DNA from: a bacterium
GTDB taxonomy: Bacteria > SZUA-182 > DTGQ01 > JAFGSM01
Direction: 5' to 3'
Length of the DNA stretch: 61,900 nt
Assembly: GCA_049472355.1 (NCBI GenBank)
Contig: JBLIRP010000008.1
Location: 1-61,900, forward strand
Shown here: positions 31,618 through 50,512 of the stretch, one piece after another
Position numbering within the stretch: the stretch's first letter is position 1
How the letters are laid out: each line of letters opens with the position of its first letter
The notes under the pieces: model-generated
Database searches by the model: none
What the model was told of the DNA's origin: nothing
The model's input: the letters and a program-made list of their open reading frames with translations, nothing else
Translations under genes and position numbers: made by a program

Positions 31618-32372
31618 TTCGGCGGATCAAGCGAAGCCTGAGGCCCCTGTTCTACCGGTACTTCGAATACGCCCACGTGGTGAGGACGTTCGAGTGGTCG
31701 GTCATCAGCAGGTGGCTCAAGCCAGCCCCCGGTGACCTCATCCTGGACATCGGCTGCGGCCACGGACATTTCGTCCGAAGGCTGTGGAGGCCAGGCCTCA
31801 GGATCCTGGGCATCGACCTGCATGAAAACGGTATCGGCATCGCCCGGCAATACAACAATCCCGACGGGTGCGCCTTTCTCCGGGCGAATGCCATGTCCCT
31901 TCCCTTTGCAGGCGAACGGTTCGACAGGGTGATGAGCGTCTGCTCCTTCGAGCACTTCAGCGATGACGACAGGGCGATACGGGAGGCGAACCGGGTCCTG
32001 AAGCGGCAGGGCACCCTCGTCCTGAGCGTGGACAGCTTTAGCTATCCGGGCATCAGCGAATCCTACAGGGAGCGGTGCAGGAAGAAGCACGCGGTGTGCC
32101 AATTCTATACGAACGGCGAGCTGCGGGGAAAGCTGGAGCGGGCAGGGTTCAGCATCCTCAACGAGCGGTGCGTGATCTCCTCGCCCCTTGCAGCACTGGG
32201 ATACCGGCTGGGCACCTTCTTCCGGTGGTCGGGCATCGACTTCATGGACCCCCTCCTCTTTATCCTGCTCTTTCCGGTCTCCTTCCTCTTCGAACAGATC
32301 CTTGGATTGCGCCTCAAAGAAAAGGGATACATACTCGTCATGGAGGCGCGAAAGGTGGCGTGTCCCTCATGA
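31608..32372 (+). CDS. Class I SAM-dependent methyltransferase
   Basis: LDIGCGHG, LPF...FD, EH, RVLK..G. Confidence 0.87.
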   Translation: MPVIRRIKRSLRPLFYRYFEYAHVVRTFEWSVISRWLKPAPGDLILDIGCGHGHFVRRLWRPGLRILGIDLHENGIGIARQYNNPDGCAFLRANAMSLPFAGERFDRVMSVCSFEHFSDDDRAIREANRVLKRQGTLVLSVDSFSYPGISESYRERCRKKHAVCQFYTNGELRGKLERAGFSILNERCVISSPLAALGYRLGTFFRWSGIDFMDPLLFILLFPVSFLFEQILGLRLKEKGYILVMEARKVACPS

Positions 32373-33580
32373 GGGTCCTGATCGTCGCGCCCTTTTTCCC
32401 TCTGCCGCTTGACAGCGGCGGCGCAATCCGCATCTACAACCTGGTCCGGCATCTTTCCCGGTTCCATGAGATCACCCTCCTGAGCTACATCAAGGCGGAT
32501 CAATATCCCCTCCTGAGCGAACTGGAGCCGTATTGCCGCGTCGTTGCGCTCCCCTTTCCCGAGATGGCACGGTCGTGGCCCATGCATGCATGGCACCTCT
32601 TCTCCCGGCTTCCCTATTCCCTGGTATACATCGACCGCCGGTTCAGGGACCTGCTTGCGGAGGTATGCCGGGAGTCATGGGACATCATCCAGATCGAGTT
32701 CCTCCCCTTTGCCCACTATGCGGACATCCTGCCGAGGTCCGCACGGCGGGTGGTGGTTGAGCACTACATAGCGCTGGAGGCGCGAAAGAGACTGGTGGGC
32801 CTGTGGAAATGGGGCCTGAGGAAATTGTACTATGCATGGGAGCTTAGGAAGATACGCGCCTATGAGCAGGGGGTCCTCGACCGTTTCGACCTGTGCCTTG
32901 TCACCAGCACCGCCCACGAGGCGCTCCTGCGGTGGTGGGGTGTGCGCACCATGATCAGGGTGAGCCCGAACGGGGTGGATGCAACCTACTTTTCCCCGCC
33001 GAGCGGGCATGCCCCTCCGAACGCGGAGCCCGGCCCGCCCACCCTGGTGTACATGGGGGCCTTTCACCTGGAGCCTGCGAACATCGACGGCCTGACCTAC
33101 CTGCTTAAGGATATCCTCCCGCTCATACAGCAGGAGGTCCCTGACCTCAGGCTGGAGATCATCGGCAAGGGCCTTCCCCGCTCATTTGAAAAGATATATA
33201 AAGGCGATCGGATACATTTTTACGGCTACCTCGACGACATCCGGCCGGTCCTGGGCAGGGCCGGTGCATTCGTCCTCCCCTTGCGGGGAGGGTCAGGCAC
33301 CAAGATACGCATTCTCACCGCCATGGCCATGGGGATTCCGGTGGTGGCGACCTCCATAGCCGCCGATGGGATCGAGGCCCGGGACGGATGGCACCTGCTG
33401 ATCGCTGACGACCCCCGGGTGTTTGCACAGAAGGCCGTTCAGCTTCTCAAGGACCCCCGGCTGCGCAGCACCATCGGCAGGGCGGGCCGCAGTCTGGTGG
33501 AGGAACGCTACACCTGGAAGCGGGTGGCGGACGACCTGGATGCCATATATCGCGGTCTTTCCAGAGTCGGGAGGAATTGA
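32369..33580 (+). CDS. GT4 glycosyltransferase
   Basis: P.PLDSGGAIRIYN, PNGVD, PLRGGSGTKIRIL.AMAMG.PVV. Confidence 0.88.
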   Translation: MRVLIVAPFFPLPLDSGGAIRIYNLVRHLSRFHEITLLSYIKADQYPLLSELEPYCRVVALPFPEMARSWPMHAWHLFSRLPYSLVYIDRRFRDLLAEVCRESWDIIQIEFLPFAHYADILPRSARRVVVEHYIALEARKRLVGLWKWGLRKLYYAWELRKIRAYEQGVLDRFDLCLVTSTAHEALLRWWGVRTMIRVSPNGVDATYFSPPSGHAPPNAEPGPPTLVYMGAFHLEPANIDGLTYLLKDILPLIQQEVPDLRLEIIGKGLPRSFEKIYKGDRIHFYGYLDDIRPVLGRAGAFVLPLRGGSGTKIRILTAMAMGIPVVATSIAADGIEARDGWHLLIADDPRVFAQKAVQLLKDPRLRSTIGRAGRSLVEERYTWKRVADDLDAIYRGLSRVGRN

Positions 33581-33583
33581 GCA

Positions 33584-34756
33584 GTGGAGACCCATCCCTA
33601 CGGGAAATGGAGCCGGGGAATCCACGAACGCATGTCCTCCCGGCGGGTCCCCCTGAGCTGTTCGGTGGAGGTCACCAGGCGCTGCCCCCTCTCCTGCCGC
33701 CACTGCTACAACAATCTCCCCCTGGGGGACCGCAAGGCCGCACACGATGAGATGAGTTGCGAGGAGCATTGCCGCATCCTCGACCAGTTGGCGGAGGCGG
33801 GGTGCCTGTGGCTTTTGTACACAGGCGGCGAGCCCTTCGCCCGGGGGGATTTTCCGGACATCTATCGATATGCCAAGGGCAAGGGCATGCTCATCACCCT
33901 CTTCACCAACGGCGTTCTGATCAGCGAGCGGATCGCCGATCACCTGGCTGCATGGCCCCCCTTCTCCATCGAGATTACCCTCTACGGTCGCACCAGGGAG
34001 GTCCACGAGCAGGTGACCCGCGTGCCCGGCTCCTATGATGGGTGCATGCGCGGCATCACGCTTCTCATGGAGCAGGGCCTTCCCCTCCGGCTCAAGACGG
34101 TGGCCCTCACCATCAACCGGCATGAGATCGGGGAGATGCAGCGATTCGCAGAAGAGGATCTGGGGGTGGAATTCAAGTACGATCCCATGATCAACCCCCG
34201 GATCGATTGCTCCAGGGCGCCGCTCGCACTGCGCCTTTCACCCGCCGAGATCGTGGCGCTCGACCTCCGGGACCCGCAGCGGGCCATGGAGTGGCGGGAG
34301 TTCGCCGGACGGTGCGGTACCCCAGCCGGGACGCCATCCACCGGACACGACCTCTACCTGTGCGGCGGCGGCGTCAACTCCTGCGCCGTCGATCCCTACG
34401 GCATGCTGCACCTGTGTGTGCTCTCCTCCGCTGCCGGGTACGACCTCCGGAAGGGAAGCCTTTGCGAGGGGTGGGAGCGGTTCCTCCTCGATATCAGGAA
34501 CACACGGGCATCCCGTCACACCAAATGCCTGACGTGCGGCCTCAGGGCCATGTGCGGCATGTGTCCGGCAAACGGCGAGCTGGAGTGCACGGACCCCGAG
34601 TCCCCGGTGGACTTCCTGTGCCGGGTGGCGCACCTTCGTGCATACGCCCTGGGCATCCCGGCCCCCCCCCACGGCGATTGCGAGTACTGTCCGGGGGGGA
34701 AGGGGTACGAGGAGATGATGCGCACGGCGGAGTCGCTCGCAAAGGGATGCTGCTGA
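33584..34756 (+). CDS. Radical SAM/SPASM putative peptide maturase
   Basis: CPLSCRHC, TGGEP; SPASM cysteines YLCGGG...LHLC and KCLTC...CGMCP...FLC; extra HGDCEYC tail. Starts 3 nt after the last glycosyltransferase. Confidence 0.9.
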   Translation: METHPYGKWSRGIHERMSSRRVPLSCSVEVTRRCPLSCRHCYNNLPLGDRKAAHDEMSCEEHCRILDQLAEAGCLWLLYTGGEPFARGDFPDIYRYAKGKGMLITLFTNGVLISERIADHLAAWPPFSIEITLYGRTREVHEQVTRVPGSYDGCMRGITLLMEQGLPLRLKTVALTINRHEIGEMQRFAEEDLGVEFKYDPMINPRIDCSRAPLALRLSPAEIVALDLRDPQRAMEWREFAGRCGTPAGTPSTGHDLYLCGGGVNSCAVDPYGMLHLCVLSSAAGYDLRKGSLCEGWERFLLDIRNTRASRHTKCLTCGLRAMCGMCPANGELECTDPESPVDFLCRVAHLRAYALGIPAPPHGDCEYCPGGKGYEEMMRTAESLAKGCC

Positions 34757-34759
34757 TCC

Positions 34760-35218
34760 ATGCACCCGAGCCCGGTCCTCACCCCCTCCTCGCTTTCCTG
34801 GGGGCACAATCTTTTTTGCGAGGTATGCTCATCCCTCCTGCTCGAGGGGTATGCCGTCCGCTTCAGCGCGCCGGGAAGGAGCATGTACCCCACCATCCTC
34901 GACGGTGACGCAGTCACCGTACATCCGGTAAAGGAATCCGTGATCAGGCGAGGGCACATCCTTCTGTGCCGGTACAAGGGCAGGGTCATCGCCCACCGGG
35001 TCGTTCGCATCGAACGCCGGGATGGGAATACACCGCTCTACACCCTCCGTGGAGACTCCCACGGGGCACCCGAGGAAGTGGTGGATGCCGGTGATGTGCT
35101 GGGCATGGTGCGCTCGGTGGAGCGCAGCGGCCGCAGCATCGATGTGTCCCGTCGGCAACCGAGCCTTCCCCGGATCGCCCGCAGCCTCGTCAGCCGCATC
35201 GCGCGACTCCTTTCCTGA
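34760..35218 (+). CDS. S24/S26 family peptidase (signal-peptidase-like)
   Basis: GRSMYPTI.DGD (catalytic Ser), IAHRV, LRGD. No TM anchor. Confidence 0.8.
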   Translation: MHPSPVLTPSSLSWGHNLFCEVCSSLLLEGYAVRFSAPGRSMYPTILDGDAVTVHPVKESVIRRGHILLCRYKGRVIAHRVVRIERRDGNTPLYTLRGDSHGAPEEVVDAGDVLGMVRSVERSGRSIDVSRRQPSLPRIARSLVSRIARLLS

Positions 35219-35260
35219 TCCATCCTCGATAATCAATCCTCCTCGATAACGATTCACACC

Positions 35261-35350
35261 TCACAGAACTGTCCACGCATCAGATAGCAGTCCTTCCCTT
35301 TTTGTGTCTTCCCTTTCATTATCTTCCGACTCGTCTACTGCTATGATCAT
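35261..35350 (-). pseudogene. Truncated VapC/PIN toxin remnant
   Basis: Coupled by a TAATG overlap to the abrB-like gene; reads MIIAVD, then unrelated sequence, and stops after 29 aa. Confidence 0.5.
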
Positions 35351-35580
35351 TATGCCTTTCCGCGGAGATCATCGATAATCTCATCCGAATCCCTCCCTTT
35401 CAAGTGCGAGAGGAACCCCGTGTAGTTTCTTAGATTTTCTATTGAGGCCCTATGTCCCTTAACAAGGACAACCTTGCCCGCATCCTCTATAAAAACAACC
35501 TCATCGCCAGGCTTTATTCCCAACTTTTTCCTTATTTCCAGCGGGATGGTCACCTGGCCTTTTTGTGTTACCTTTGACAT
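35350..35580 (-). CDS. AbrB/MazE/SpoVT family antitoxin
   Basis: SKVTQKGQVTIPLEIRKKLGIKPGDEV; GGAG RBS upstream of ATG 35580. Confidence 0.9.
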   Translation of the reverse strand: MSKVTQKGQVTIPLEIRKKLGIKPGDEVVFIEDAGKVVLVKGHRASIENLRNYTGFLSHLKGRDSDEIIDDLRGKA

Positions 35581-35804
35581 ATTCGCCATCTCCATGGGTC
35601 TTTCGTTAAGAATTACCAATGGTATTTTGTTTGTCACGTATGAAGGGAAGGATCACCAATCCACGGCTGCAAAGAACCTTGGATGGGAGCATACAAAACT
35701 GAATGGGCATTCCCTTGCAATTTAATTGTGTAATGATTAATGTTATAGTAACAATCAATTGCTTGTAAAGCAGGCCTTTGTCATTAAGGAAAAAGGGCTA
35801 CACA

Positions 35805-36281
35805 ATGACAGCCGCAAGAAAAAGGGATACGCCGCCTCCCCCTCCCGATGCAGTTAAGGAATTGCTTCACGCCTTTTTTGAGAATCATCCCGAGGTGATT
35901 CTGGCGTATCTCTTTGGATCATTCATTACACGAAAAACCGGTTCGTTCAATGACATAGACATTGCCGTCCTTGTTATCCCCGAGCGCCTGGAAGAACTTG
36001 ACCGGTCATCGCCCTACGGATACGCCGCCTATGTGATTGCGGAGTTGGCCCATCTGCTGAAGTACGACCGGATTGACTTGACCATCCTGAACCGGGCACC
36101 GCCCCTCCTGTTGAGGCGGGTCATCGGCGAGGGGATGCTCGTGTTTTGCCGCTCTGAGTCGGATCGTGTTCGCTTCGAGGTTGCGTCGTTAAAAAGGTAT
36201 GCGGATACGGCGCATCTTCGCACAATTAAAAGACATTACATGAGGCAACGAATCAAGAAAGGTAAGGCTTCGTATGCTTGA
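35805..36281 (+). CDS. MNT minimal nucleotidyltransferase antitoxin (MntA-like)
   Basis: AYLFGS-x10-DIDIAV, IDL..LN.APP.L. Confidence 0.88.
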   Translation: MTAARKRDTPPPPPDAVKELLHAFFENHPEVILAYLFGSFITRKTGSFNDIDIAVLVIPERLEELDRSSPYGYAAYVIAELAHLLKYDRIDLTILNRAPPLLLRRVIGEGMLVFCRSESDRVRFEVASLKRYADTAHLRTIKRHYMRQRIKKGKASYA

Positions 36282-36705
36282 TCGACCGGTTATCGAGCAA
36301 CATCTGCTCACCATGGAAGAGGCACTGGCAAATCTCGAACGATACCGGGATGTTTCATCGTCGGATTTCGAAAATGACCTGAGCCTTATCTGGATTGCCG
36401 AGAAGGGACTGGAGATCCTGATCCAGAATCTCTTGGATATCGGCGCCCATATCCTTGCCTCGGAGATCAGAAACGATTGGGATGATTACAGAGAAATCAT
36501 CCGCAAACTCGGCCACCATGGGATCCTTCCAGGGGATTTTGCAGAAAGGATTCAGGGCATGGCCGGTCTTCGAAATATTCTGATCCATGATTACATAAGG
36601 GTAGATGTGGGAAAGATATATGATGTTCTGAAAAACCGGCTTGGAGATTTCGTGGAGTTTATGTCATATATTCAGAGATATATGGAATCCATCAACCGCC
36701 GTTAA
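36274..36705 (+). CDS. HEPN/DUF86 RNase toxin (HepT-like)
   Basis: Rx4HxY motif RNILIHDY; overlaps the MNT gene. Confidence 0.9.
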   Translation: MLDRPVIEQHLLTMEEALANLERYRDVSSSDFENDLSLIWIAEKGLEILIQNLLDIGAHILASEIRNDWDDYREIIRKLGHHGILPGDFAERIQGMAGLRNILIHDYIRVDVGKIYDVLKNRLGDFVEFMSYIQRYMESINRR

Positions 36706-37050
36706 TAACCCCGTCTGCACGACCTGAGGCCTATTTCCTCCTCAACGGTTCCCTTCTATATCCCCTTGTAACACCCGTTTCCGTCCTTGATTACCATCAA
36801 TCCCATCGCACGCATTTTTTCAGGCAGACGAATTCCGTAAGGTATCGACGTGGTTGTATGGTAAAAACGAGGGTGTTTGCATGGCTTGTTGCCGCGAATC
36901 GTCACCATGTGACATGAATTGTCAGTATCGAGGAAACGATTCGAGCGTTCGAGAGACCCGTAGGGCACATTCATTCGCGGGCACACGGGTGTACCCGTTC
37001 CACCTTCCTGTCCTGCAATGTGGTGGGCTGTTTCAATAAAACAGTGCTAA

Positions 37051-37089
37051 TTGACAAAAATTGTTAATCGGATGACATAAAGTGTCATC
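37051..37089 (+). promoter_or_regulatory. Tandem palindromic operator/UAS sites (TGACA-N5-TGTYA, two copies)
   Basis: TTGACAAAAATTGTTAA (37051-37067) and the perfect palindrome GATGACATAAAGTGTCATC (37071-37089). Confidence 0.55.
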
Positions 37090-37162
37090 AAAATCACCGT
37101 ACATCATGAGGCTTCTTCTGTAAAATAATAATAATAACAAATAGATATAAGATTTTCAGTGC

Positions 37163-37178
37163 AGGCACGGTATATGCT
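37163..37178 (+). promoter_or_regulatory. Putative sigma-54 promoter of the giant C25 gene
   Basis: AGGCACGGTATATGCT (GG-N10-GC), preceded by an AT-rich tract and tandem palindromes. Confidence 0.6.
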
Positions 37179-37510: not shown

Positions 37511-40500
37511 ATGAACGCAATACAACGGATTTTCCGGCACCCGGCAGTCATTGCCGTGTTCCTGGGTGTTCTTGTTGCCCTGCTTCCGCTGTGCGCGGCG
37601 CGGGCTGCCGTGTATTCAAACTCCACCTCCATCAGCATCCCCGATTCCGGCGCTGCCACGCCCTATCCATCGACTATTACGGTCCCAAGCACCTCCGGCA
37701 CCGTCACCAAGGTCATGGTGAAGTTCATCGGGCTCAGCCATACATGGCCGGATGACATAGATATACTCCTGGAAGGTCCCGGCGGGCAGACGATCATGCT
37801 CATGTCTGACCAGGGCGGCGGCGGGGCTGTAAGCGGCGTCACCCTGACCTTTGACGATAACGCAACCGAGGATATTCCCGATGGGGTAGGTGTCGTTTCC
37901 GGCATGTACAAGCCCTGCGAGACCACCCAGGGCGACACCCTCCCTTCTCCTGCCCCCTCGTCCCCCTACACGGGCACACAGCTTTCGGTATTCAATGGTG
38001 TGGCCCCCCAGGGCGATTGGGACCTATATGTCATAGATGATGCCGGCGGTGACAGCGGCTCCATCTCGGGCGGGTGGGAGTTGATCATCATCACGGACGA
38101 GGAGAGCGATATCTATCGCCTCGGCGGCTGGCACACCGGCCTCACCGGGTATACCGCCCCCTCCGGCACGAACCGTCTCCTTGTCTTTGTCTCCGGTTAT
38201 GAACATGGCCCTGTAGGCGATTCCGATATTACGAATGTCACCTATGGCGGCGTTCCCATGACCGAGGCGGTGGGTTGCATCACCTCAGCAAGCGGTGTTA
38301 AGGCCCGATGTGAGATCTGGTATCTTCTCGATGCGGGCATTCCGGGCGGCAGCAACGATTTTGCTGTAAGTTATTCTATTTCTCCCATTGATGTTGGAAT
38401 GTTGGATGCATCAATAGCCGATCCAACACAGACTACCAATATTTATATAAATTATGTGAATCCCGCCAATGCAAATGGTTATTTGAACAAAATTACATGT
38501 AATGTAAATACCGTTGGAGATGGTGACTTCCGTGTCTTTACCTGCAGCAAGAGTGGCAGTAACTTCACTGTCAGGGACTTTGCAAATTTAACCGTTACTG
38601 CCACGGGTGAACAAACCCATTCAGTCAATTTGCAGGTAAACAGTGGTGATTATTTGGGATTCTGGTGTAATACACTACGGCTTGAAAGAGGCGATGAAGG
38701 GGCCATACAATATTATTATGAAAATCCGGCGGGATTGCCGACTGTTCCTGGTATTGGAACGGTATATTCATGCAGTTTTGGAGATCGAAATTTAAATATA
38801 TTATTGTATGGCGAATATGTAGCCCCGAATGATCCCTTTCATGCGGCTGCGACCTATGCCAACGTAAACCAGGCAGACCCGTTTGAAGATACCGCTCAAA
38901 ACGAGGATTCGGTTGACCCGATTACCAATCCTATCGAGGTAACCGGCAATGTGGTTGAAGGAGGCATAGCCATTGCAGGCGCCGTGGCCGGGGACACCGA
39001 TCCCTATACCTGGGGAAACGGCTGGGACACGTGTTCGAATCAGGATACCGTCGAGGCGGCGATGAGTACGGCAGAGCACATGATCACGGCAACCGGCACG
39101 GATACGGCGAGTGCATATCATTCAGGCACCAACCATTATCGCCAGGTCATCGTTGCGGTGAGCCTCAATCCGTTAGTGGGGCTAAGCCTTTCCAACCACG
39201 CCGCGGGCCAGGAGGGGGACAAGTTCGGCACGGGTGCATCGGTCACCGGCGCGGAGCTCTTCGCCTTCAAGTTGACGAACAACGGCACTTCGGATGCGAC
39301 CGTGGATACGGTGGAGTTCCAGCTCTCCTCGGTCACGGGTATTGTGCAGGGGGATTTCGCGAACCTTGCGATATACATAGACACCGACAACGACGGGACC
39401 ATCGAGGCGGGGGAGATCACCACGGTGGGCGGGGCAGGCGCGGTAGATGCCGGGGTGACCACCATCACCTTTCTTGCCGACTTCACCGTTTCAGCGGGCG
39501 CTACGGTCAACTACATCCTGAAGGGGGATGTGAGCAACCTCGCCGAGGGGGATGAACTCACCATCAGCCTGGCTACAGGCAATGTCACCCTCACTGCAGG
39601 GAGCACGGGCGGCTCAGGCACCACCAGCGTCACCCACGAAAAGGAATTTTACTATGCCCACCGCAGGCGTATCACCATCGACCACACCCTGATAGGGGTG
39701 GACTGTGCATCCGACCTCATCGATTTTCCCTTCCTTTTCGAGATGACGGACAACGACCTGAAGGGAACGGCAAGCGGCGGATGCATCGAGAACGCAAACG
39801 GCTACGACATCATCTTTATGGATGAGTCGTGCACGATCCAGCTCGATCACGAGGTGGAGCTGTACGACAGTGCCGCCGGCAGGATGGTGGCCTGGGTGAG
39901 GATTCCCGTCCTCTCGTACACCGCCGACACGGCCATCTACATCTGCTACGGCAACAGCGGCATCACCTCACCCACGGAGAACCCCGAAGGGGTGTGGGAC
40001 TCCAATTACGCAGGGGTGTGGCATTTAAAGGAAACCGACATCGACGGAGGACCCGGGGACATAAAGGACAGCACCTCCAACGCACATCACGGCACGACCT
40101 TCGGCATGGATATAAATGATCAGGTGGCAGGAAAGATTGACGGCTCATTTGATTTTGACGGTGGTGATTATGTCGGCCTGTCAAATGATTCTTTCAGCAC
40201 GTTATCGAGCGTTACGGTTGAGGCTTGGGTTAAGACAAATAACAGTTCCGCCCAACAGACGCTTTTTGATGCCAAAGAGGGCACGGATGCCAATGATTCA
40301 TTTGGATTGGGTATCTATTCGAACAAATTCAGGGTCTGGGTTAAGCGGGGAGTTGCATATACAGCCATATCCTCAGATAATGCCCTCGCGGATGGCAGTT
40401 GGTATCACTTTGTGGGCATGTGCGGTTTATCAGGATTAAAGATGTATGTTAACGGCTTGGAACAATTGGCTACCAGCCCCACAACGGATTGTCTGGATGA

Positions 40501-43500: not shown

Positions 43501-46500
43501 GGATACAACCGCCGGAACCTGTACCGTGCGCTATTTCGTGGTGAGCCACAGCACCTTAAATGTACAACGGGGAAGCGACTATGCTGAATCTGCGGATTCC
43601 GCCGAGAATCAGGCAATCAGCGCGGTCGATGCCGCCACGGCATTTCCCGTTACCTTCAATGACTGTAATGGAACCGGTGCCGCCTTCCCGAGACCTTACT
43701 GGCGGGCCTGGTTCTCCAATGGCACAACACTTGACTGGGATAGGGCATACACGGGCCAGGATGGCAACCTCTTCTGGCAGGTCATCGACCTTTCGGGGTT
43801 TGGTAGTGGTGCAGCGACGTTTGCCGCTGCGGAGGACGAAAAGCTCCTCGGCCTTACCCTCGGCACGCCCATGAGGGTGCGCTTCGAGGTATCGAACGAG
43901 GGCACCCAGGATGCCGACCCTGCCACCTATCAACTCCAGGTGGCGGAGACCGCCGACTGCGGCACCGGCGTGTATACCGCGGTGCCCACCGATGCGAGCG
44001 GCGACTGGCAGATCATCGATTCGACTTACATCACCGATGGGGAGGCAAGCGCAAACACCGCCTCCGGGCTCACGGACGAGAACCTCACCTTTGTGCCGGG
44101 CGATCTCAAGGACGCAGGCAACACCACCGGCGGCATCAGCCTCGCCACGGACGAATTCACCGAGATCGAGTTCACCATCCAGGCCACCTATAACGCCACC
44201 TTCGGCGGTGATTACTGCTTCCGCCTGTATGACGCCACAAGCGGGGTGCCTCTGGACAGCTATGCTGTGTATGCCCAGGTGCAGCTCTCCGAGTGTAGGT
44301 TCATGTACCGCAAGGAGCTCACCATCGACCAGTCGGTGGTGGGGGCAAGCTGCGGCTCGGACCTCACCGACTTCCCCTTCCTGGTCAACATACAAAACGA
44401 CGCAGACCTGAAAACCACAATAAACGGCGGCCATGTGGAGGACCCCGAAGGGGACGACATCATCTTCAGGGACGCAAACGGCGTGGAGCAGCTCGACCAC
44501 GAGGTGGAGCAGTATGACCCTGCCACCGGCACCCTGCTGGCCTGGGTCCGTATCCCCACCCTCTCGGCGACCAGCAACACGATCATCTTCATGTACTACG
44601 GCAACGAGTGCATCTACACCACCTCTGAGAACCCGGAGGGGGTGTGGGACCCCAACTACATGGTGGTGTTGCATTTAAAGGAAGATGCACCCGGAACGGG
44701 AACAGCGGATGTATATCAGGATTCCACGGCAAATAATAATCATGGCGCAGATTATGTTTCAGCCGCAGGGCAAACCGGTAAAATAGACGGCGGACAGCAG
44801 TTTGACGGGACGAATGATTATATAAGCTTGGAGGGCCAGGCCATCGAAGACCATGACTATGATGCGGTGACTGTAATGGCCTGGTATAAATCTTCCGATT
44901 CAACGGTGGGTGGAACCGGAGGGGTTGATGACGAATATATTTATAATCACGTATCGAACGAGGGTTGGGTTGACTTTGTTAATATGGGTCCAACTGATGA
45001 TACCGGTGAGGCCGGTCACTTGAGAGCGAGTATCGCCGTTGGCGGCGCATACAATGATGTGTTTAGCACAACCAATATTGTTGATCAACAATGGCATCAT
45101 TGTGTAGTCGTCAGGACCGGCGGTGGTGCGGGCTCAAGGGTAAAAGTCTATGTTGACGGCTTTGAAGAAGCAGATGAAGCCGATGCTTCCGGTGGTGGCG
45201 TGATATATCTGGCACCCTCGGATGTCGGCCCTATTATTGGGGATGAGGCATTCGAGGAAGAAGCCGTGCATGGGATTTTGGACGAGATCCGGGTGTCCAA
45301 CAAGGCCCGCGACCTGTGCTGGATCCAGACCGAGTTCAACAACCAGTCGGATCCCAACTATGTCAAGGTCGGGCCCGAGCTGTACAGCCCGCCCACAGCG
45401 GTGAAGCTGGCCTCCTTCTCGGCGACGGGGAACGGTTCCTCCGTGCAGGTGAAATGGGAGACCGCCCAGGAGATCGACAACATGGGCTTTTATCTCTACC
45501 GAGCGCCGAGCCCGAACGGCCCCTTCACCAGGCTTACCGACAGGATGATACCCGGGCTCTTCTCCTCCCTGATGGGCAAGGAATACACCTTTATGGACAC
45601 CGGGGTCACCTATGGCAGGCTTTACTACTACCGGCTCGAGGACGTGGACCTTTCCGGGAACCGGACCTCCCACGGACCAATATGCGTTGACTGGGACGGG
45701 GACGGCATGCCGGACGACTGGGAACTCAGCCACGGCCTGGATCCGCTGGTGAACGACGCCATGCTCGATCCCGACGGCGACGGCCTCACCAACCTGGAGG
45801 AGTACAGGCGGGGCACCGACCCGTTCAATCCCGACTCGGACGGCGACGGCATCCCGGACGGGGGAGACCGGATACGAAACGACGGGGAGGCCCGCGTGAC
45901 CCGGTCCATTACCCCGGGTGTCCAGGTGGTGGAGCAGGACGCGACCGGCGTGACCCTGGAGCTTCGCACCGAGGCATTTGCGAAAACGGAGGTCAGGGTG
46001 AACGGCACGACCTATCAGCGCCTGAAAATAGACGAATATATCCACGGTGCAACCGAGCAGGTGGGAAGCCCCGAGCTCCCGGTGAAGGGGATCCTGCTCG
46101 ATGTGCCGGATGGCATGACCGCATCCCTGACCGTGGAGAAAACCGAGGTCACCACCCATGCCGGATACCTGGTCTACCCCGTTCCGGAAACGGTGGTCGC
46201 AAACGAGGGCGACATGGAGCGGGTGGCCGAGGTATTCGCCAGGGACGAGGCTGCCTTCGCTGCGAATGCCTTCTATCCGGAAGTGGTTGCACGGCTGGGC
46301 AGGACCTACACCTTCAGGGACCAGAAGAGGTTGCATGTCGTGTTCCATCCCCTGAGCTTCAATCCGAAGACCAGGGAGCTCAAACAGCACCACTTCATAA
46401 GGGTGCGGATCGATTACCGGGATGCCAGGGCGCGCTCCCTTACCAGGGAAAAGCCCTCCGCATGGGCGCCCCCCTCGGCTGAGCCCGCATACCGCGTGCT

Positions 46501-49018
46501 CGTGGCCGAGGAGGGTATCTACCGGCTCACCGCCAATGAGTTGGATGCGAACGCCATCGAGGACCTGAGCCAGGTGCGGCTCTACAACCTCGGGCAGGAG
46601 GCGGCGCTCTTCGTGCACGACCAGGATGCGGACGACTACCTGGATGCCAACGACTACATCCTTTTCTATGGCAGGGAACCGGACGACGAATACGCGAAGT
46701 ATTCGAACCACAACACCTACTGGCTCACCTCCTCGGGCGGCACCGGGGAGCCGATGCGCATGGCCGATGCAAACAGTGCCCCGGATATCGCAACGATTGC
46801 CGGTACGCATCTGTTCACCGTGCACCACGAGAAGGATGAGTGGTACCTGAGCAAGGCCCCGGGCGATGATTCGGTTGACCGGTGGGTCAGCCTCCCCTTC
46901 GTGCTCGGCGAGGAGATGGACGGGGGCGGGGTCCCGGTGGACTTCACCGTGCCCCTTACCGGCGTCACCGGGGAAGGGAGCATGGCGATCCGCCTGTGCA
47001 GCCTTGTCGACACCAACCACGTGGTGAAGGTGGCGGTAAACGGCGATCCCGCGGGAACCTTCGAGTGGAACTCGGTCGCATCCTACACCGCGCTCACCCA
47101 TCCCGTGGACCTGCTGGAGGGGAACAACACCGTAACCTTCAGGTGCGTGAGCGGTGCTGACTCCATAGCCGTAGACTGGATCGAGGTGACCTACGAACGC
47201 GATTTCACCGCATCCGCAAACACGCTGACATTCAAACACGACCAGGGATACGGCTACCAGGTCGAGGGATTCACCTCCAGCGATTTGTGGGCGTTCGAGG
47301 TGACCTCAGCGAACGAGGTCAGGCTCCTCACAAACTGCCAGGTATCAGGGACCAATCCCTATACCCTCGCCTGCGAGCCCCTGTATGACGGGAACATCCC
47401 CGGGGAGCGGACCTTTCTTACCCTGGCTGCGGATGCCCTGAAGACACCGGTAGCAGTGGAAAAGGACATCGCCTCGAACCTTGCCGATACCGCAAACGGC
47501 GCGGACTATATCCTGATCACCCATCGGGAGATCGGATGGGATGGAAACGGTGACCCCTTGCAGTGGATCGGTGACCTGGTGTCCCTGCGCGAGTCCCAGG
47601 GACTGCGTGTCACTGTGGTGGATGTCCAGGACATCTACGACGAGTTTGGCTACGGCATACCCGGACCGCAGGCGGTAAGGGATTTTCTCAAGTATGCCTA
47701 CACGGAATGGACTGCACCTGCGCCCACCTATGTGCTTCTGGTGGGTGACAGTACCTATGATCCCAAGACCAACTGGGACTGGTGGTCGGGTGCTGATTCC
47801 ACACCGTATCTTCCCGTGTACCTGACTCACACCGACCATATGGGTGAGGCGGGAACGGACGAGTGGTTTGCCCGGGTGAGCGGCGACGATGCGGTCCCGG
47901 ACCTGTACATAGGCCGTCTGCCGGCAACAACCGCGGACCAGGCCGCGATAATGGTTGACAAGATCGTGGCCTACGAGACAACAGCGAACACCAAGACCTG
48001 GGAGAAGAATGCCCTCCTCGTTGCAGACGACCAGGAGGAGGAGTACGAGGCGATCTTCGAGACCACGAGCGAGAACACGGCATCGCTGATTCCGGAGGGG
48101 CTGACCACATTCAAGGGATACCTGTCCGACTACTACAGCGCGGATGATCTCTCCACGGACATCGCCACGCAGCTCAATCAGGGCACCCTGGTGGTGAACT
48201 ACAGCGGCCACGGCCATATCCAGTACTGGGCCACCGAAAAGATCTTCGAGAATACCGACGTGGCTTCCCTTGCAAACAGCGGGCAGCTTCCCTTTGTTGT
48301 GGCCATGACCTGTCTTGCCGGAAACTTCACCTATCCGGAGACCTGGAACAATCCGTCCCTGGCCGAAGCCCTTCTGCGTTCGACGGCGAATGGCGCAGTG
48401 GCGGCCCTCATGCCCACCGGCATGACCGCACCCGAGGGGCAGCTCATCCTGGATACCGCCCTGTTCGACGCGCTCTTCACCCGTGACATCCGCACCCTCG
48501 GTGAGGCGATCTCCGAGGCGAAACAAACCCTGCTTGCCAACGGGGACGGCATGGGTGAGATAAGCGCAACCTTCCTCCTGTTCGGGGACCCGGCAATGAC
48601 CCTCAAGGTGCCGCTGCCAAGAAGGCCCAGGCTGCTCGATGCGCAGACCACCGTGGAGGATGGCGTGACCATCTCCTGGGAGGAGTCCTCTGATTGCTAC
48701 GGAGGATCGGTCGTCGGGTACAACGTCTACCGGAGCACCAGCCCCACGGGGGGATATACAAAGCTGAACACCGAGCTCCTGGACGAGGTGGAATTCACGG
48801 ATCCCTCCATTGTCCCCGGGGTCACTTACTACTACGTGGTGACCGCCGTGGACGGGGACGGGGACGAGAGCGTGCAGAGCGCGGCCCTTGGCGCGGGATT
48901 GCACGTGGGGATCAATGCCGGCAATGTAAGGATCATCGACAACGGCTGCTTCATCGACACGGTCAGGGATGTGCCCGCAGGGAACAGAGCGCCTTGGTGG
49001 ATGAACCTGTTCAAATAA
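37511..49018 (+). CDS. Giant (3835 aa) secreted modular protein: P-domain-like N-terminus, three spacer domains, three DUF2341+LamG modules, Ca-binding DxDxDG repeats, gingipain propeptide, C25 cysteine peptidase, FN3, GCFIDT tail
   Basis: RBS GGAGG; signal peptide ending ARA-A; SHTWPDDIDILL.GP; three LDHEVE.YD...AWVRIP and three HL.E...DE.R.S; ADYILIT, YVLLVGD, IGRLP, NYSGHG (His), MTC (Cys), LLFGDP. Confidence 0.93.
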   Translation: MNAIQRIFRHPAVIAVFLGVLVALLPLCAARAAVYSNSTSISIPDSGAATPYPSTITVPSTSGTVTKVMVKFIGLSHTWPDDIDILLEGPGGQTIMLMSDQGGGGAVSGVTLTFDDNATEDIPDGVGVVSGMYKPCETTQGDTLPSPAPSSPYTGTQLSVFNGVAPQGDWDLYVIDDAGGDSGSISGGWELIIITDEESDIYRLGGWHTGLTGYTAPSGTNRLLVFVSGYEHGPVGDSDITNVTYGGVPMTEAVGCITSASGVKARCEIWYLLDAGIPGGSNDFAVSYSISPIDVGMLDASIADPTQTTNIYINYVNPANANGYLNKITCNVNTVGDGDFRVFTCSKSGSNFTVRDFANLTVTATGEQTHSVNLQVNSGDYLGFWCNTLRLERGDEGAIQYYYENPAGLPTVPGIGTVYSCSFGDRNLNILLYGEYVAPNDPFHAAATYANVNQADPFEDTAQNEDSVDPITNPIEVTGNVVEGGIAIAGAVAGDTDPYTWGNGWDTCSNQDTVEAAMSTAEHMITATGTDTASAYHSGTNHYRQVIVAVSLNPLVGLSLSNHAAGQEGDKFGTGASVTGAELFAFKLTNNGTSDATVDTVEFQLSSVTGIVQGDFANLAIYIDTDNDGTIEAGEITTVGGAGAVDAGVTTITFLADFTVSAGATVNYILKGDVSNLAEGDELTISLATGNVTLTAGSTGGSGTTSVTHEKEFYYAHRRRITIDHTLIGVDCASDLIDFPFLFEMTDNDLKGTASGGCIENANGYDIIFMDESCTIQLDHEVELYDSAAGRMVAWVRIPVLSYTADTAIYICYGNSGITSPTENPEGVWDSNYAGVWHLKETDIDGGPGDIKDSTSNAHHGTTFGMDINDQVAGKIDGSFDFDGGDYVGLSNDSFSTLSSVTVEAWVKTNNSSAQQTLFDAKEGTDANDSFGLGIYSNKFRVWVKRGVAYTAISSDNALADGSWYHFVGMCGLSGLKMYVNGLEQLATSPTTDCLDDLPTPQKNYIGVEDYVGVLQAYWNGIIDEVRISNIVRSDCWVETEYNNHADPNFYEIGPQEGVVDVVLADHAAGQEGDKFDENASVIGAELFAFQLTNNETSAATIDQVVFQLSSVSGIAQGDFANLSIYIDADNDGTIEAGESTTVGGAGAVNAGVTTITFGTDFDIAAGATVNYILKGDVASLIPNDTITIDLGPDNVIVLGSGTASGNDAASAVHSSISGFGYKKQITIDQSVIGPSCGSDLIDFPFLIQIDNDTNLRSTTNGGHVEDPNGWDIVFTDANSVCILDHEVELYDGVNGDLVAWVRIPTLTYDADTIIWMYYGNRGIFSPTENPDGVWDPNFVGVWHLEEQVTDDATGGTHEDSTGAHDGTQQYNGPIAGQIADGQDFDGSGDFIQIADSDALRFGTGGTDHPFSVSAWVSGETDHAQIVGKNWDPPYGEEFDFYISSGGYFTFEVYDSDGQVIGRASTATVTGGWQHLVATYDGSKSPNGIKIYIDGAEQATTDESDRLLGFLLYDDMAATSAPVQIGAYDGGGNDWDTDGQIDEVRISNKVRDLCWIETEYLNQSDPNSFIVGPEIGVAVELGDHAAGQEPDAFTDAASVTDAELFAFHLINRRGVTVAVNEIVFPLSAVSGIVQGDFANLEIYVDTDNDGTIEAGEDTPVGGTGVVDAGCTTITFSENFDIAALSTVSYILIGDVANLVTGDTITINLAPANVAPVADTTGGVSPASAIHLAGAPTLTQIHARWRNDDGVEQASGFIVQSYQGNMGAQSSVAVPITAVSSLDRAFILAPAGKMSAGRGSLNANQNANEVLVRARFTATNQVTLTRGTNTNDSLYSFFVVEDLTGDEIYVKSGSSAFTGNTDADLDINVGAGITDYTKTVVFLTVSSDSAATTYYNEAHIRGYMTSNTNLALRRTAGNSIATVDWFVVEFKGSGWSVQQGNFSLTTGTHAAPQSQAIGAVTMADTFVFMNWQADTNGLDQTSAKVELSNSTTLRFSRQDTTAGTCTVRYFVVSHSTLNVQRGSDYAESADSAENQAISAVDAATAFPVTFNDCNGTGAAFPRPYWRAWFSNGTTLDWDRAYTGQDGNLFWQVIDLSGFGSGAATFAAAEDEKLLGLTLGTPMRVRFEVSNEGTQDADPATYQLQVAETADCGTGVYTAVPTDASGDWQIIDSTYITDGEASANTASGLTDENLTFVPGDLKDAGNTTGGISLATDEFTEIEFTIQATYNATFGGDYCFRLYDATSGVPLDSYAVYAQVQLSECRFMYRKELTIDQSVVGASCGSDLTDFPFLVNIQNDADLKTTINGGHVEDPEGDDIIFRDANGVEQLDHEVEQYDPATGTLLAWVRIPTLSATSNTIIFMYYGNECIYTTSENPEGVWDPNYMVVLHLKEDAPGTGTADVYQDSTANNNHGADYVSAAGQTGKIDGGQQFDGTNDYISLEGQAIEDHDYDAVTVMAWYKSSDSTVGGTGGVDDEYIYNHVSNEGWVDFVNMGPTDDTGEAGHLRASIAVGGAYNDVFSTTNIVDQQWHHCVVVRTGGGAGSRVKVYVDGFEEADEADASGGGVIYLAPSDVGPIIGDEAFEEEAVHGILDEIRVSNKARDLCWIQTEFNNQSDPNYVKVGPELYSPPTAVKLASFSATGNGSSVQVKWETAQEIDNMGFYLYRAPSPNGPFTRLTDRMIPGLFSSLMGKEYTFMDTGVTYGRLYYYRLEDVDLSGNRTSHGPICVDWDGDGMPDDWELSHGLDPLVNDAMLDPDGDGLTNLEEYRRGTDPFNPDSDGDGIPDGGDRIRNDGEARVTRSITPGVQVVEQDATGVTLELRTEAFAKTEVRVNGTTYQRLKIDEYIHGATEQVGSPELPVKGILLDVPDGMTASLTVEKTEVTTHAGYLVYPVPETVVANEGDMERVAEVFARDEAAFAANAFYPEVVARLGRTYTFRDQKRLHVVFHPLSFNPKTRELKQHHFIRVRIDYRDARARSLTREKPSAWAPPSAEPAYRVLVAEEGIYRLTANELDANAIEDLSQVRLYNLGQEAALFVHDQDADDYLDANDYILFYGREPDDEYAKYSNHNTYWLTSSGGTGEPMRMADANSAPDIATIAGTHLFTVHHEKDEWYLSKAPGDDSVDRWVSLPFVLGEEMDGGGVPVDFTVPLTGVTGEGSMAIRLCSLVDTNHVVKVAVNGDPAGTFEWNSVASYTALTHPVDLLEGNNTVTFRCVSGADSIAVDWIEVTYERDFTASANTLTFKHDQGYGYQVEGFTSSDLWAFEVTSANEVRLLTNCQVSGTNPYTLACEPLYDGNIPGERTFLTLAADALKTPVAVEKDIASNLADTANGADYILITHREIGWDGNGDPLQWIGDLVSLRESQGLRVTVVDVQDIYDEFGYGIPGPQAVRDFLKYAYTEWTAPAPTYVLLVGDSTYDPKTNWDWWSGADSTPYLPVYLTHTDHMGEAGTDEWFARVSGDDAVPDLYIGRLPATTADQAAIMVDKIVAYETTANTKTWEKNALLVADDQEEEYEAIFETTSENTASLIPEGLTTFKGYLSDYYSADDLSTDIATQLNQGTLVVNYSGHGHIQYWATEKIFENTDVASLANSGQLPFVVAMTCLAGNFTYPETWNNPSLAEALLRSTANGAVAALMPTGMTAPEGQLILDTALFDALFTRDIRTLGEAISEAKQTLLANGDGMGEISATFLLFGDPAMTLKVPLPRRPRLLDAQTTVEDGVTISWEESSDCYGGSVVGYNVYRSTSPTGGYTKLNTELLDEVEFTDPSIVPGVTYYYVVTAVDGDGDESVQSAALGAGLHVGINAGNVRIIDNGCFIDTVRDVPAGNRAPWWMNLFK
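39186..44650 (+). repeat. Intragenic domain repeats: spacer domain x3 (~39186, ~40698, ~42250) and DUF2341 x3 (~39650, ~41170, ~44300)
   Basis: Recurring HAAGQE...ELFAF.L...QGDFANL.IY.D.DNDGTIEAGE and ENP.GVWD. One further copy of each lies in the 54589-60300 gene. Confidence 0.85.
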
Positions 49019-49118
49019 ACGGAACCAAAGTGCCGAAGAAATAGTGAGGGCCCGATTGATCGAGAAAGATACACGAGAACTTCATACGCATGGTTCAATA
49101 TTGTGTGGGGGAAGGGAC

Positions 49119-49436
49119 ATGGAGGCATTGAATCGGCAGTATACGCGGCACGAGCATTTCGTCTTCAGGAGGATACAGGATGAAATGCTGCTTGTCCCCA
49201 TCAAGGACAATGTGGGGGACATGGGATGCATCTACAATCTGAACGACGTGGGTGCGTTCATCTGGGAGCACATGGATGGTGAAACCAAGCTTGGTGATAT
49301 TTTAAAGATGATGGTGGAGGAATTCGACGTGTCCTCGGAGAGGGCGGAGGAGGACCTGCGAGAATTCATTCGCCAGCTCGAAGAGATCGACGCAATCAGT
49401 TACATTGCTCGCCCAAAGGGGGGGAATGACCTATGA
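49119..49436 (+). CDS. PqqD family protein (RiPP recognition element)
   Basis: RRIQDEMLLVP, YNLNDVGAFIWE.MDG, EEFDVS...AEEDL..F..QL. Confidence 0.9.
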   Translation: MEALNRQYTRHEHFVFRRIQDEMLLVPIKDNVGDMGCIYNLNDVGAFIWEHMDGETKLGDILKMMVEEFDVSSERAEEDLREFIRQLEEIDAISYIARPKGGNDL

Positions 49437-49603
49437 CCAAGAAGGGAACACGAAAACGGGAGTATACAAAACCTGCCGTGACGCGGATCACCCTTGACGC
49501 GCGCTGCGCAGTGCTGGGGTTTTGCAAGACCAATGCGACCCTGGGCCCCGGGGTTCCCAACTGTGGTGCGCCCTTTGCGCCCTGTTCCTCCCCGGGATCG
49601 TGA
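49433..49603 (+). CDS. Putative RiPP precursor peptide, 56 aa, four Cys (not in the ORF track)
   Basis: ATGA overlap with the pqqD stop, G-rich RBS. MTKKGTRKREYTKPAVTRITLDARCAVLGFCKTNATLGPGVPNCGAPFAPCSSPGS: basic leader with YxxP, Cys/Gly/Pro-rich core. Confidence 0.85.
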   Translation: MTKKGTRKREYTKPAVTRITLDARCAVLGFCKTNATLGPGVPNCGAPFAPCSSPGS

Positions 49604-49651
49604 TCCTGGGGTTGCTCGCGATCTGATCTGAAAGGGTTTTTCCGAGACAAC

Positions 49652-50512
49652 ATGCCAGAGGTCTTGACCATACGCATCGGCGACGTATCGATCGCCATCG
49701 ATGGGGAGCGCGTGGAGGGGAATGGGCGCCTTCTGTCCTCCTATTCCCCCTTTATCGGGAATGGCAGGGTTGATATCCGCCTGCGGCTGCATTGCGGAAT
49801 CCCCGATAATTTCAGTATGGGCGAAAGGGTGTTTGCGTGTCCCCCCATGTGGACCCTCTACCGCAGGGATGGCTCCTCAATTATCACCATCTGCAATCAG
49901 GGCGCAGGGCTGGAACGGGCCCTCGTGCTCTCCCCTGAAATCGATGAAGCACAGCTCTATATCGCCCGGGAGACAAGGTTTCTGGGAGATCCCTTCTACG
50001 GCCCCACCATGGAGCTTCTGCTGCTGCACTATCTGTCCCGCGGAAGGGGGGCCATCCTGCACGCCTGCGCCGTTAATCGAAAGGGGAAAGGGATTCTGTT
50101 CATAGGGGAATCGGGTGCCGGAAAGAGCACCCTGGCCGGGATATGGCAAGCGAACGGTGCCGGCGAGGTGGTGAGCGATGACAGGGCGATCGTACGCACA
50201 CAGGGGAATCGCTTCCGGATGTACGGCACCCCCTGGCACGGGGATGCACGACTCGGCCTTCCCGGGGGTGTGCCTCTTACCCGCATATTCTTCCTGCGGC
50301 ACGGGAGCGTCAACGCCGTAAAGGACCTTGCGGGGATCGATCCGGTGGCGAGGCTCCTCACTTGTTCCTTTCTCCCCCACTGGGACCCTCAGGGAGTGAC
50401 GTTCGGCATGGATTTTTTCACCGGCCTGGCCGCCCGGGTCCCCTGTCAGGAGCTCTTCTTCAAGCCGGACCGGAGTGCCCTCCACTTCATCGAAAAGATC
50501 ATGGATGTCTGA
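49652..50512 (+). CDS. HPr-kinase-like / ScmC-like P-loop protein
   Basis: LHACAV, GESGAGKST, SDDR, YGTPW.G. Confidence 0.8.
   Translation: MPEVLTIRIGDVSIAIDGERVEGNGRLLSSYSPFIGNGRVDIRLRLHCGIPDNFSMGERVFACPPMWTLYRRDGSSIITICNQGAGLERALVLSPEIDEAQLYIARETRFLGDPFYGPTMELLLLHYLSRGRGAILHACAVNRKGKGILFIGESGAGKSTLAGIWQANGAGEVVSDDRAIVRTQGNRFRMYGTPWHGDARLGLPGGVPLTRIFFLRHGSVNAVKDLAGIDPVARLLTCSFLPHWDPQGVTFGMDFFTGLAARVPCQELFFKPDRSALHFIEKIMDV

Follow-up and report, generated by a model that had tools for sequence, protein, structure and literature searches.

The window analysed here, that is, the whole stretch of 61,900 nucleotides (positions 1 to 61,900 of the forward strand of contig JBLIRP010000008.1, assembly GCA_049472355.1), carries two gene sets for a peptide made by the ribosome and modified after translation (RiPP). 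The first encodes a radical SAM/SPASM maturase (rSAM; 33584..34756) and an S26 peptidase (34760..35218); the second encodes a PqqD-type recognition protein (49119..49436), a precursor peptide of 56 residues (49433..49603) and an HprK-like kinase (49652..50512). All lie on the plus strand, and between them stands the gene of a giant exported protein of 3835 residues with a C25 peptidase domain, C25a (37511..49018, plus strand). The rSAM-S26 pair and the PqqD-precursor-kinase trio are two halves of one conserved cassette, as an earlier note on this DNA had proposed. We consider it probable that this cassette cross-links, phosphorylates, trims and exports the 56-residue peptide, and that the product most likely serves at the envelope or matrix and is not a free antibiotic. 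This kind of pathway has been known since 2026 from the linear polyphosphorylated peptides (LPP) of Bacillota (Popov et al., Nat Commun 2026, PMC13381572); what is new is a radical-SAM-bearing variant that occurs in many phyla.

One cassette in two halves

The two halves form one cassette because the same five genes usually adjoin in a survey of 80 loci and occur as single copies in the window genome. The survey started from the kinase, whose family carries PF27840 and numbers 1079 of 5386 candidates at E <= 0.001. A 20-member kinase profile recovered at least 548 confirmed relatives in species-representative genomes, from which the best 80 loci were kept with at most 10 kb of flank on each side, 27 of them having at least 9 kb on both sides of the kinase (full-flank loci). 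By tblastn or profile, the rSAM was found in 45 of the 80 loci, the S26 peptidase in 45, PqqD in 55, the precursor in 65 and a PF14907 (NTP_transf_5) nucleotidyltransferase in 40, the respective numbers for the full-flank loci being 17, 15, 23, 23 and 14. Most commonly the genes run PqqD-rSAM-precursor-kinase-S26, in many cases with the nucleotidyltransferase next, at times as a fusion with S26. Two loci (L004 and L006) have the window order, rSAM-S26-PqqD-precursor-kinase, but only about 0.7 kb in place of the window's 13.9 kb. Only one copy each of kinase, PqqD, S26 and precursor occurs in the window genome (G000; 3.49 Mb in 148 contigs, 87.5 % complete), the precursor at 49433-49603 being the sole match to its profile in the whole genome, and every other rSAM is at most 34 % identical to that of the cassette. 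A second cassette elsewhere in this genome was considered and is excluded, as every component is single-copy. Cassette loci span many phyla, among them Desulfobacterota, Acidobacteriota, Chloroflexota and Omnitrophota, and the window rSAM falls inside a 24-row clade of cassette rSAMs (SH-aLRT 99, quick tree).

The family also shows some internal variation. Measured against the window rSAM, cassette rSAMs are of two types, with identities of some 55-62 % and some 44-50 %, and these types track neither kinase identity nor taxonomy; for instance, the loci with the closest kinases (L003 and L010) have the other rSAM type. L004 holds, at 495-2974, a second kinase-S26-nucleotidyltransferase set that has no rSAM, L054 has two precursor genes, and L054 and L056 have two PqqD genes each. 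Furthermore, clusters in the ESM Atlas contain a radical SAM domain fused to a ScmC/PF27840 kinase-like domain (578 residues, 584 members, mostly Aminicenantota).

The split around the giant C25 gene is the normal state of this lineage and not an accident, since the same order recurs in four of five Desulfobacterota genomes and in a genome of the same genus (G014). The five were drawn from the Desulfobacterota loci, where C25 immediately precedes PqqD or the precursor and the 10-kb flank stops within C25, and they were searched for the rSAM. Four of them (G002, G003, G004 and G005) carry, on one strand, an ABC exporter, the rSAM, S26, at least one giant protein ending in a C25 domain, PqqD, the precursor and the kinase; the nucleotidyltransferase follows the kinase in three (G003, G004 and G005), and a family 4 glycosyltransferase (GT4) gene stands first in two (L091 and L092), with GT4 genes ahead of exporter-rSAM-S26 recorded in L091, L092 and L093. 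The fifth (G001) has rSAM-S26-nucleotidyltransferase on a separate contig, beside OmpA, Rce1-like, HEAT, WbqC, PIG-L, DegT, WecA-like, HD and AAA_22 genes. The G014 contig is colinear with positions 29219-43866 of the window at 81-92 % nucleotide identity, through GT4, GT2, a methyltransferase, GT4, rSAM, S26, MntA, HepT and the start of C25a. Because the ratios of nonsynonymous to synonymous substitution rates (dN/dS) between window and G014 are 0.16 for rSAM, 0.36 for S26 and 0.15 for the adjoining GT4, these three genes are maintained, rSAM and S26 under purifying selection.

It is very improbable, bordering on negligible, that the halves are remnants of different cassettes or that the window is an assembly chimera. 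Such a view could draw on the distance of 13.9 kb, on the toxin-antitoxin pair between the halves and the mobile genes after them, and on the separate contigs of G001. It is opposed by the single-copy, complementary nature of the components, by the split order in four of five relatives and in G014, and by frames that are all intact with dN/dS below 0.4. Moreover, independent metagenome contigs span 35144-35627, 36682-37398 and 50094-52000, the last from two independent runs, so that the junctions are not peculiar to one assembly. Skip-type joints seen within the C25a gene in contigs from public runs look like repeat artefacts.

Two further genes of the pathway lie elsewhere in the genome assembly. 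On contig C104 (L083), a gene for a PF14907 nucleotidyltransferase of 379 residues overlaps that of a 635-residue MsbA-like ABC exporter, and genes for an Asn-synthase-like amidotransferase and a GT4 come next. With rSAM-abutting exporters this exporter shares 59-63 % identity in L004, L006, L046, L068 and L082, and 50-55 % in L090, L091 and L093. In G014, contig C28 (L096) has C104-like genes (94 % amino acid identity for the exporter, 92 % for the transferase) about 12 kb from the orthologue of C25b, the second C25 protein of the window. Because this contig joins C104-like DNA to the C25b gene, synteny places a reversed C104 after the window end, beyond a gap of about 1.7 kb, and places the transferase, exporter, amidotransferase and GT4 on the cassette strand, about 25 kb downstream of the kinase. 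A protein of 1015 residues, TPR/DUF3857/transglutaminase-like, is encoded between C25b and the transferase. The earlier note had reported neither a cyclase nor an exporter; this holds for the window, in which no lasso cyclase or peptide exporter was found, but not for the genome, in which an exporter and a PF14907 nucleotidyltransferase are present on C104. A genome of the same order (G017) has rSAM, S26, an HD protein, PqqD, kinase, precursor, transferase, GT2, an Asn-synthase-like gene and GT4 in one contiguous set. Since that set is contiguous, and given the synteny of C104, the window differs from the G017 state by two insertions, one made up of the toxin-antitoxin pair and C25a, the other of mobile genes, C25b and about 12 kb.

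The precursor and its predicted maturation

The precursor (MTKKGTRKREYTKPAVTRITLDARCAVLGFCKTNATLGPGVPNCGAPFAPCSSPGS), recognised through its profile relatives, has a YxKP leader, a Cys-rich core and a C-terminal Gly-Ser. Over 46 aligned sequences, Y11, C31 and K32 are invariant, and K13, P14, L21, A26, L28, C44 and S56 are at least 90 % conserved; the C-terminus is almost always Gly-Ser and occasionally another small residue followed by Ser or Thr. The PqqD-type protein is a discrete RiPP recognition element (RRE; PF05402, E 1.5e-17) and most resembles the B1 proteins of lasso peptides and LppB of the LPP pathway, with matches in the PDB to TbiB1 (5v1u, E 7e-4) and to LppB (9x8z, chain B, E 0.0036).

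The rSAM (PF04055) has no fused RRE and no recognition domain at its N-terminus. Its CX3CX2C motif (C34/C38/C41) and its SPASM cysteines C260, C278, C315, C318, C324, C327 and C346 are each present in 41 of 41 aligned cassette rSAMs, and none of the NCBIfam rSAM maturase families reaches its cut-off for this protein. The label HprK/ScmC-like, which the earlier note had given to the kinase, proved apt, as the protein belongs to PF27840, named 'ScmC' in the Atlas. It also has weak Hpr_kinase_C and HprK_rel_B matches and a conserved Walker A motif (G-E-S-G-A-G-K-S-T), and its structure model (pLDDT 80.6) has phosphoenolpyruvate carboxykinase (PEPCK) and HprK/P as top folds. The S24/S26 peptidase (PF00717; TIGR02228 below cut-off) is of the soluble archaeal or endoplasmic-reticulum type and resembles LppS. 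In 28 sequences, S41 (in S-M-x-P) and H79 are invariant and D99 (G98-D99) is at least 90 % conserved; its profile matches SEC11C/SEC11A (E 2e-8) better than bacterial SPase I, a LexA/SPase fold with an N-terminal helix is seen in the model (pLDDT 87.5), and no transmembrane segment is predicted. The conserved Ser/His/Asp and the precedent of LppS as described in PMC13381572 speak for the suggestion, made from the sequence at the outset, that this enzyme is a likely leader peptidase.

In the pathway that we propose, the discrete PqqD domain would bind the YxKP leader. Lacking a recognition domain itself, the rSAM/SPASM enzyme would introduce thioether-type links at the three conserved cysteines. 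By analogy with the kinases of lasso peptides, the HprK/ScmC-like kinase would place a phosphate on a serine, most probably the near-invariant Ser56 at the C-terminus, and the PF14907 nucleotidyltransferase of C104 may add a sugar to the serine phosphate, as in pseudomycoidin. The SipW/Sec11-type soluble S26 peptidase would then remove the PqqD-held leader. Its cut is predicted after Ala26, since in LppA the leader Tyr stands 16 residues before the LppS cut and the same register applies here, and the core would thus begin V-L-x-x-C-K. Finally, the product would leave the cell through the MsbA-like exporter of C104.

C25 proteins, exopolysaccharide genes and the role of the peptide

A C25 protein is encoded in 25 of the 80 loci and in 14 of the 27 full-flank loci, in 25 of 25 cases on the strand of the kinase; 12 loci have it upstream (Desulfobacterota) and 13 have it downstream (Acidobacteriota, Chloroflexota and others). 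PF01364 occurs in three copies in the window genome, two in G003 and one each in G002, G004 and G005, and the nested C25 gene is the sole one of the genome in three of the four relatives. In the window, C25a has a predicted signal peptide and a PorU-like C25 domain (PF01364 at residues 3333-3698, E 9.7e-88) whose His and Cys align with the catalytic positions of PorU (6za2) and RgpB.

The other recurrent neighbour is an exopolysaccharide (EPS) locus. In the window it is a glycan operon on the plus strand (7784-33580), with WbqC, PIG-L, DegT, WecA-like GT, HD protein, Wza, Wzc, Wzy, Wzm and Wzt followed by methyl- and glycosyltransferases. Its front block of eight genes (WbqC, PIG-L, DegT, WecA-like GT family 4, HD-domain protein, Wza, Wzc and Wzy_C, assigned by Pfam; 7784..18798) is represented next to the cassette by at least one homologue in 21 of 80 loci and by two or more in 14, the full-flank figures being 12 and 9 of 27. 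In L074, all eight stand in the window order, with the cassette between HD and Wza. With 2-4 Poly_export genes per genome (1.5-4.7 Mb; five genomes chosen for having such a neighbour), the chance expectation is a few percent. The neighbourhoods of homologues, to which the earlier note had tied its proposal, are thus enriched in large C25 proteins and in Wza/Wzc/Wzy-type loci. In the window, the final glycosyltransferase of the operon, a stp1-like GT4 (32369..33580, plus strand; TIGR03087, E 6e-58, below cut-off), is separated from the rSAM, and the rSAM from S26, by gaps of three nucleotides (TGA GCA GTG and TGA TCC ATG), and the stop of C25a from the start of PqqD by 100 nucleotides. These spacings, already noted earlier, were read again directly from the sequence, and the coordinates and plus strand of the GT4, rSAM/SPASM, S26, C25a, PqqD, 56-residue reading frame and kinase were verified. 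As a side observation, the Wza-type polysaccharide export protein (12705-15194) has about 500 residues of FG-GAP repeats at its N-terminus.

An envelope or matrix role of the peptide appears likely from this gene neighbourhood, because the cassette is conserved across phyla, an exported C25 protein is nested in it in Desulfobacterota, and it recurs in Wza/Wzc/Wzy loci. Several points weigh against this reading. As the kinase served to find the loci, many of which are related, the counts are not independent, and every one of them is inflated by relatedness. Of the 27 full-flank loci, 13 have no C25 gene within 10 kb and 15 are devoid of all eight EPS genes, and in the class of the window C25 genes occur in 13 of 20 genomes and the cassette kinase in 2 of 20. 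In G014 the rSAM half is present and the kinase was not detected; the contigs break inside C25a and just past C25b, so that its absence cannot be judged, and kinase non-detection in the same-genus genomes, which are 63-97 % complete, is uninterpretable. Scans for promoters and terminators at 31-38 kb and 48.5-54.6 kb gave counts near shuffled expectation and are uninformative on operon structure. No sequence overlap between the window and C104 was found, their link being synteny with another genome and not an assembled join. As to the chemistry, the LPP phosphosite (Ser at core +3) and FET cleavage motif are not conserved in the window-type precursors, and we infer the type of cross-link, the phosphosite, the cleavage site and the glycosylation by analogy. 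Since about half of the full-flank loci lack C25 or EPS genes, and since C25 exceeds the kinase at the level of the class, the link of the cassette to C25 and Wza/Wzc/Wzy loci is enriched and real but facultative.

The same patchiness nourishes another explanation, in which the cassette makes a diffusible antimicrobial or signalling peptide and the C25 and glycan genes are unrelated cargo of a variable surface-gene island. We regard this as unlikely while granting it some weight. Only 2 of the 20 class genomes have the kinase and only one of five close relatives has the rSAM, C25 is common where the cassette is missing (13 of 20 genomes), toxin-antitoxin modules and PIN and Rpn transposase genes lie in and around the cassette, and LPP clusters are described as patchy, transfer-prone and typical of conflict systems (PMC13381572). 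Mere hitch-hiking, however, does not sit well with a C25 gene that keeps the strand of the cassette in 25 of 25 loci although it stands upstream in Desulfobacterota and downstream in Acidobacteriota and Chloroflexota, which argues that the link has survived rearrangement. Nor does it account for a nested C25 gene that is the only one in three of four relatives, or for eight EPS genes that recur in the same order in distant phyla; moreover, no immunity gene was seen.

A sharper form of the envelope reading makes C25 a dedicated extracellular enzyme of the pathway, which would trim the peptide, for instance at the invariant Cys-Lys, or join it to a protein or glycan as a PorU-like transpeptidase. 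Its catalytic His and Cys are kept, structurally it comes closest to the sortase PorU, a signal peptide is present in C25a, the gene is on the same strand and nested in or directly after the cassette, and Cys31-Lys32 is invariant in 46 precursors. About half of the full-flank loci nonetheless lack C25, many genomes have C25 and no cassette, and C25a scores 280 bits against a cut-off of 420 for the PorU model; such a dedicated role is therefore doubtful. Less probable still, in our judgement, is a far-reaching model in which the thioether-bridged peptide with its C-terminal serine phospho-sugar would be an envelope part, serving as primer or anchor for the WecA-like/Wza/Wzc/Wzy polysaccharide. 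In that model C25 would act as a sortase independent of the type IX secretion system (T9SS), coupling the peptide-glycan to surface proteins or the reverse, and the whole would form a peptide-primed exopolysaccharide system common to Desulfobacterota, Acidobacteriota, Chloroflexota and Omnitrophota.

Whatever the C25 proteins do, their C-termini have features of their own. The second protein of the window, C25b (1945 residues; 54589..60426, minus strand, convergent with the cassette; Pfam), is 55 % identical to C25a over the C25 region and has an orthologue in G014. The C-terminus of Desulfobacterota C25 proteins is a poly-Gly stretch plus G-C-F-I-x-T, to which several add a hydrophobic transmembrane helix and a basic tail; the relatives examined include L015, L024, L028-L030 and L052. 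C25a and C25b both end in GCFIDT (motif ends at 48950-49018 and 54589-54640), and there is no helix after the motif in either of them or in the C25 proteins of L003, L009 and L010. The putative CFI-box sorting motif of NCBIfam (NF041763, cut-off 15.9 bits) scores 10.4 bits in C25a, 15.6 in L030 and 13.4 in L015, and has no match in C25b; a literature search for 'CFI-box' found nothing. A pair of genes for an Rce1-like CPBP protease and a HEAT-repeat protein goes with the cassette in Desulfobacterota (17-18 of 80 loci) and lies on contig C59 of the window genome (L084, 7051-9314, minus strand). The pair, weakly resembling two myxosortase-family models, MrtS and MrtJ, could, speculatively, be a candidate processing or sorting enzyme for CFI-box tails. 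PorV and the C-terminal domains of T9SS cargo (Por_Secre_tail) were not found in the 87.5 %-complete genome, with weak controls, as the C-terminal domain model matched no control genome. The third C25-domain gene of the genome, on the minus strand of contig C72 (23789-25018), lies in a 4581-residue open frame away from the cassette.

The MntA/HepT type VII toxin-antitoxin pair between S26 and C25a (35778..36705, plus strand; NF047752 and NF047751 above cut-off) has the same position in G014 and is not there in L090-L092; it is a lineage-specific insert. After the kinase comes a low-GC mobile insert (50513..54588, GC 0.41-0.45) with a PIN gene (50983-51456, minus strand) and an Rpn-family transposase gene (52113-53090). 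This insert occupies the position held by the nucleotidyltransferase gene in relatives, where NTP_transf_5 follows HprK. The toxin-antitoxin pair, the PIN/Rpn stretch and the minus-strand C25b had not been part of the earlier note. The other rSAM/SPASM gene of the window (1795-2961) was considered as a RiPP enzyme and excluded, being the heme b synthase AhbD (TIGR04545, 526 bits, above cut-off). After it, up to 6540, come a fusion of a B12-binding radical SAM protein (TIGR03960) with TIGR03936 and a third radical SAM gene, both unrelated to the cassette. In metatranscriptome run X20, short Logan contigs include seven small ones within C25a and one at 49114-49296; they bridge no junction, may stem from DNA carry-over and are not evidence of co-transcription.

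Comparison with known systems

Of the systems with which the cassette can be compared, SynChlorMet (TIGR04248-TIGR04251) was the one named at first. The resemblance is genuine in that a PqqD homologue, an rSAM/SPASM enzyme and an HprK-like P-loop protein of the PF27840 'ScmC' family are shared. It does not extend to the four equivalogs, which all score far below their cut-offs (ScmC 22/125, ScmD 34/100, ScmE 74/400 and ScmF 62/400 bits). Furthermore, SynChlorMet has two rSAMs, whereas the window cassette has one, together with an S26 peptidase, an NTP transferase and an identified precursor. Judged by sequence, SynChlorMet is only a distant relative, and LPP is closer.

A second comparison is offered by lasso peptides, in which HprK homologues phosphorylate the C-terminal Ser of the precursor and the pseudomycoidin nucleotidyltransferase adds a hexose to the phosphate, as reported in PMC8498205. 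The cassette shares with the tailoring module of paeninodin and pseudomycoidin the kinase, the nucleotidyltransferase, a B1-type RRE and the C-terminal Ser (Ser56 of the window, at least 90 % conserved), but has neither lasso cyclase nor B2 protease. A lasso peptide as product was considered and excluded, there being no cyclase, no B2 protease and no cyclase among the conserved neighbour clusters; the Asn-synthase-like protein of C104 reaches 50 bits against the 525-bit cut-off of the lasso cyclase model NF033535 and is nearer to a PEP-CTERM amidotransferase model. With the rSAM/SPASM maturases of sactipeptides and ranthipeptides, the window enzyme has in common CX3CX2C, a seven-Cys SPASM domain, a Cys-rich substrate and RRE dependence, and differs from them in that its RRE is a separate protein. 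C25a, in turn, resembles the T9SS sortase PorU in its Propeptide_C25 and C25 domains, catalytic His/Cys and export, 6za2 being its best PDB relative. In contrast to PorU, it falls below the cut-off of NF033707, as given above, and is a giant multi-domain protein with a CFI-box-like end.

The closest known system is the LPP pathway, a better comparison than SynChlorMet. As described by Popov et al. (PMC13381572), the cluster lppA-K-B-S-D-N comprises a precursor, LppA (leader YxxPxVL...FET), an HprK-like kinase, LppK, an RRE, LppB, an archaeal-type signal peptidase, LppS, an MsbA-like exporter, LppD, and an NTP transferase, LppN, and is located in capsular polysaccharide loci. Experiments reported there show that LppK polyphosphorylates core Ser3 and that LppS (S29/H68/D93) cuts the leader after Thr-1 only in the presence of LppB, while LppN had no detectable effect; the role of LPP is stated to be unknown and its occurrence to be restricted to Bacillota. 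The window-type cassette shares the discrete PqqD-type RRE (weakly similar in sequence to LppB, E 0.0036), the HprK-like kinase, the polysaccharide-locus setting and a soluble archaeal-type signal peptidase I with Ser/His/Asp (S41/H79/D99 in the window). It also shares the leader motif [Y/W]xxPx[L/V/I/F/A], which reads Y11-T-K-P14-A-V16 in the window. The PF14907-type NTP transferase and the MsbA-like exporter, which belong to the LPP cluster itself, are on C104 in the window genome, about 25 kb downstream by synteny with G014, and adjoin the cassette in relatives. Counted in this way, the window system has counterparts of all six LPP functions.

The differences are nonetheless considerable. 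First, the window-type cassette adds a radical SAM/SPASM enzyme (45 of 80 loci), whereas LPP is described as linear, with phosphorylation as the primary modification and no core cross-linking enzyme. Second, the window-type precursors depart from the full LPP consensus YxxPxVLxHQxIxFETxxS, having no HQ, no FET and no conserved Ser at the position of core +3, and instead read L-x-(P/D)-(E/A)-x-A-V-L-x-x-C-K, and the window core is Cys-rich and ends in Gly-Ser. Third, LPP is described from Bacillota only, whereas the window-type cassette is found in Desulfobacterota, Acidobacteriota, Chloroflexota, Omnitrophota and others, and the recurrent same-strand C25 protein belongs to the latter. In the main text of PMC13381572 the words 'radical' and 'SPASM' have no occurrence and C25 is likewise unmentioned, and our literature search for the rSAM-bearing variant found only this paper, for LPP. 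The head row of its supplementary 'Total domain matrix' nevertheless lists Peptidase_C25, Propeptide_C25, Radical_SAM, WbqC, HEAT_2, Abi and TIGR03087. Because Peptidase_C25, Radical_SAM and WbqC appear in that row, at least one of the 199 peptidase neighbourhoods of that study may be of the rSAM/C25 kind.

The final product of LPP-type peptides, their role and their habit of residing in capsule loci are unexplained, and the window represents a much more widespread relative in phyla of anaerobic sediment and soil. This relative accompanies exported PorU-like C25 proteases where no type IX secretion was detected, plus a fixed Wza/Wzc/Wzy gene set, and the nested giant protease, conserved across Desulfobacterota, offers a testable handle on the purpose of the phosphopeptide and on the C25 "sortases" outside Bacteroidota. 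Should the link turn out to be only hitch-hiking, the radical-SAM RiPP family, with its defined precursor motif, would still be new. In anatomy, the window contributes a nested C25 protein, a relocated transferase and exporter, and a conserved EPS block.

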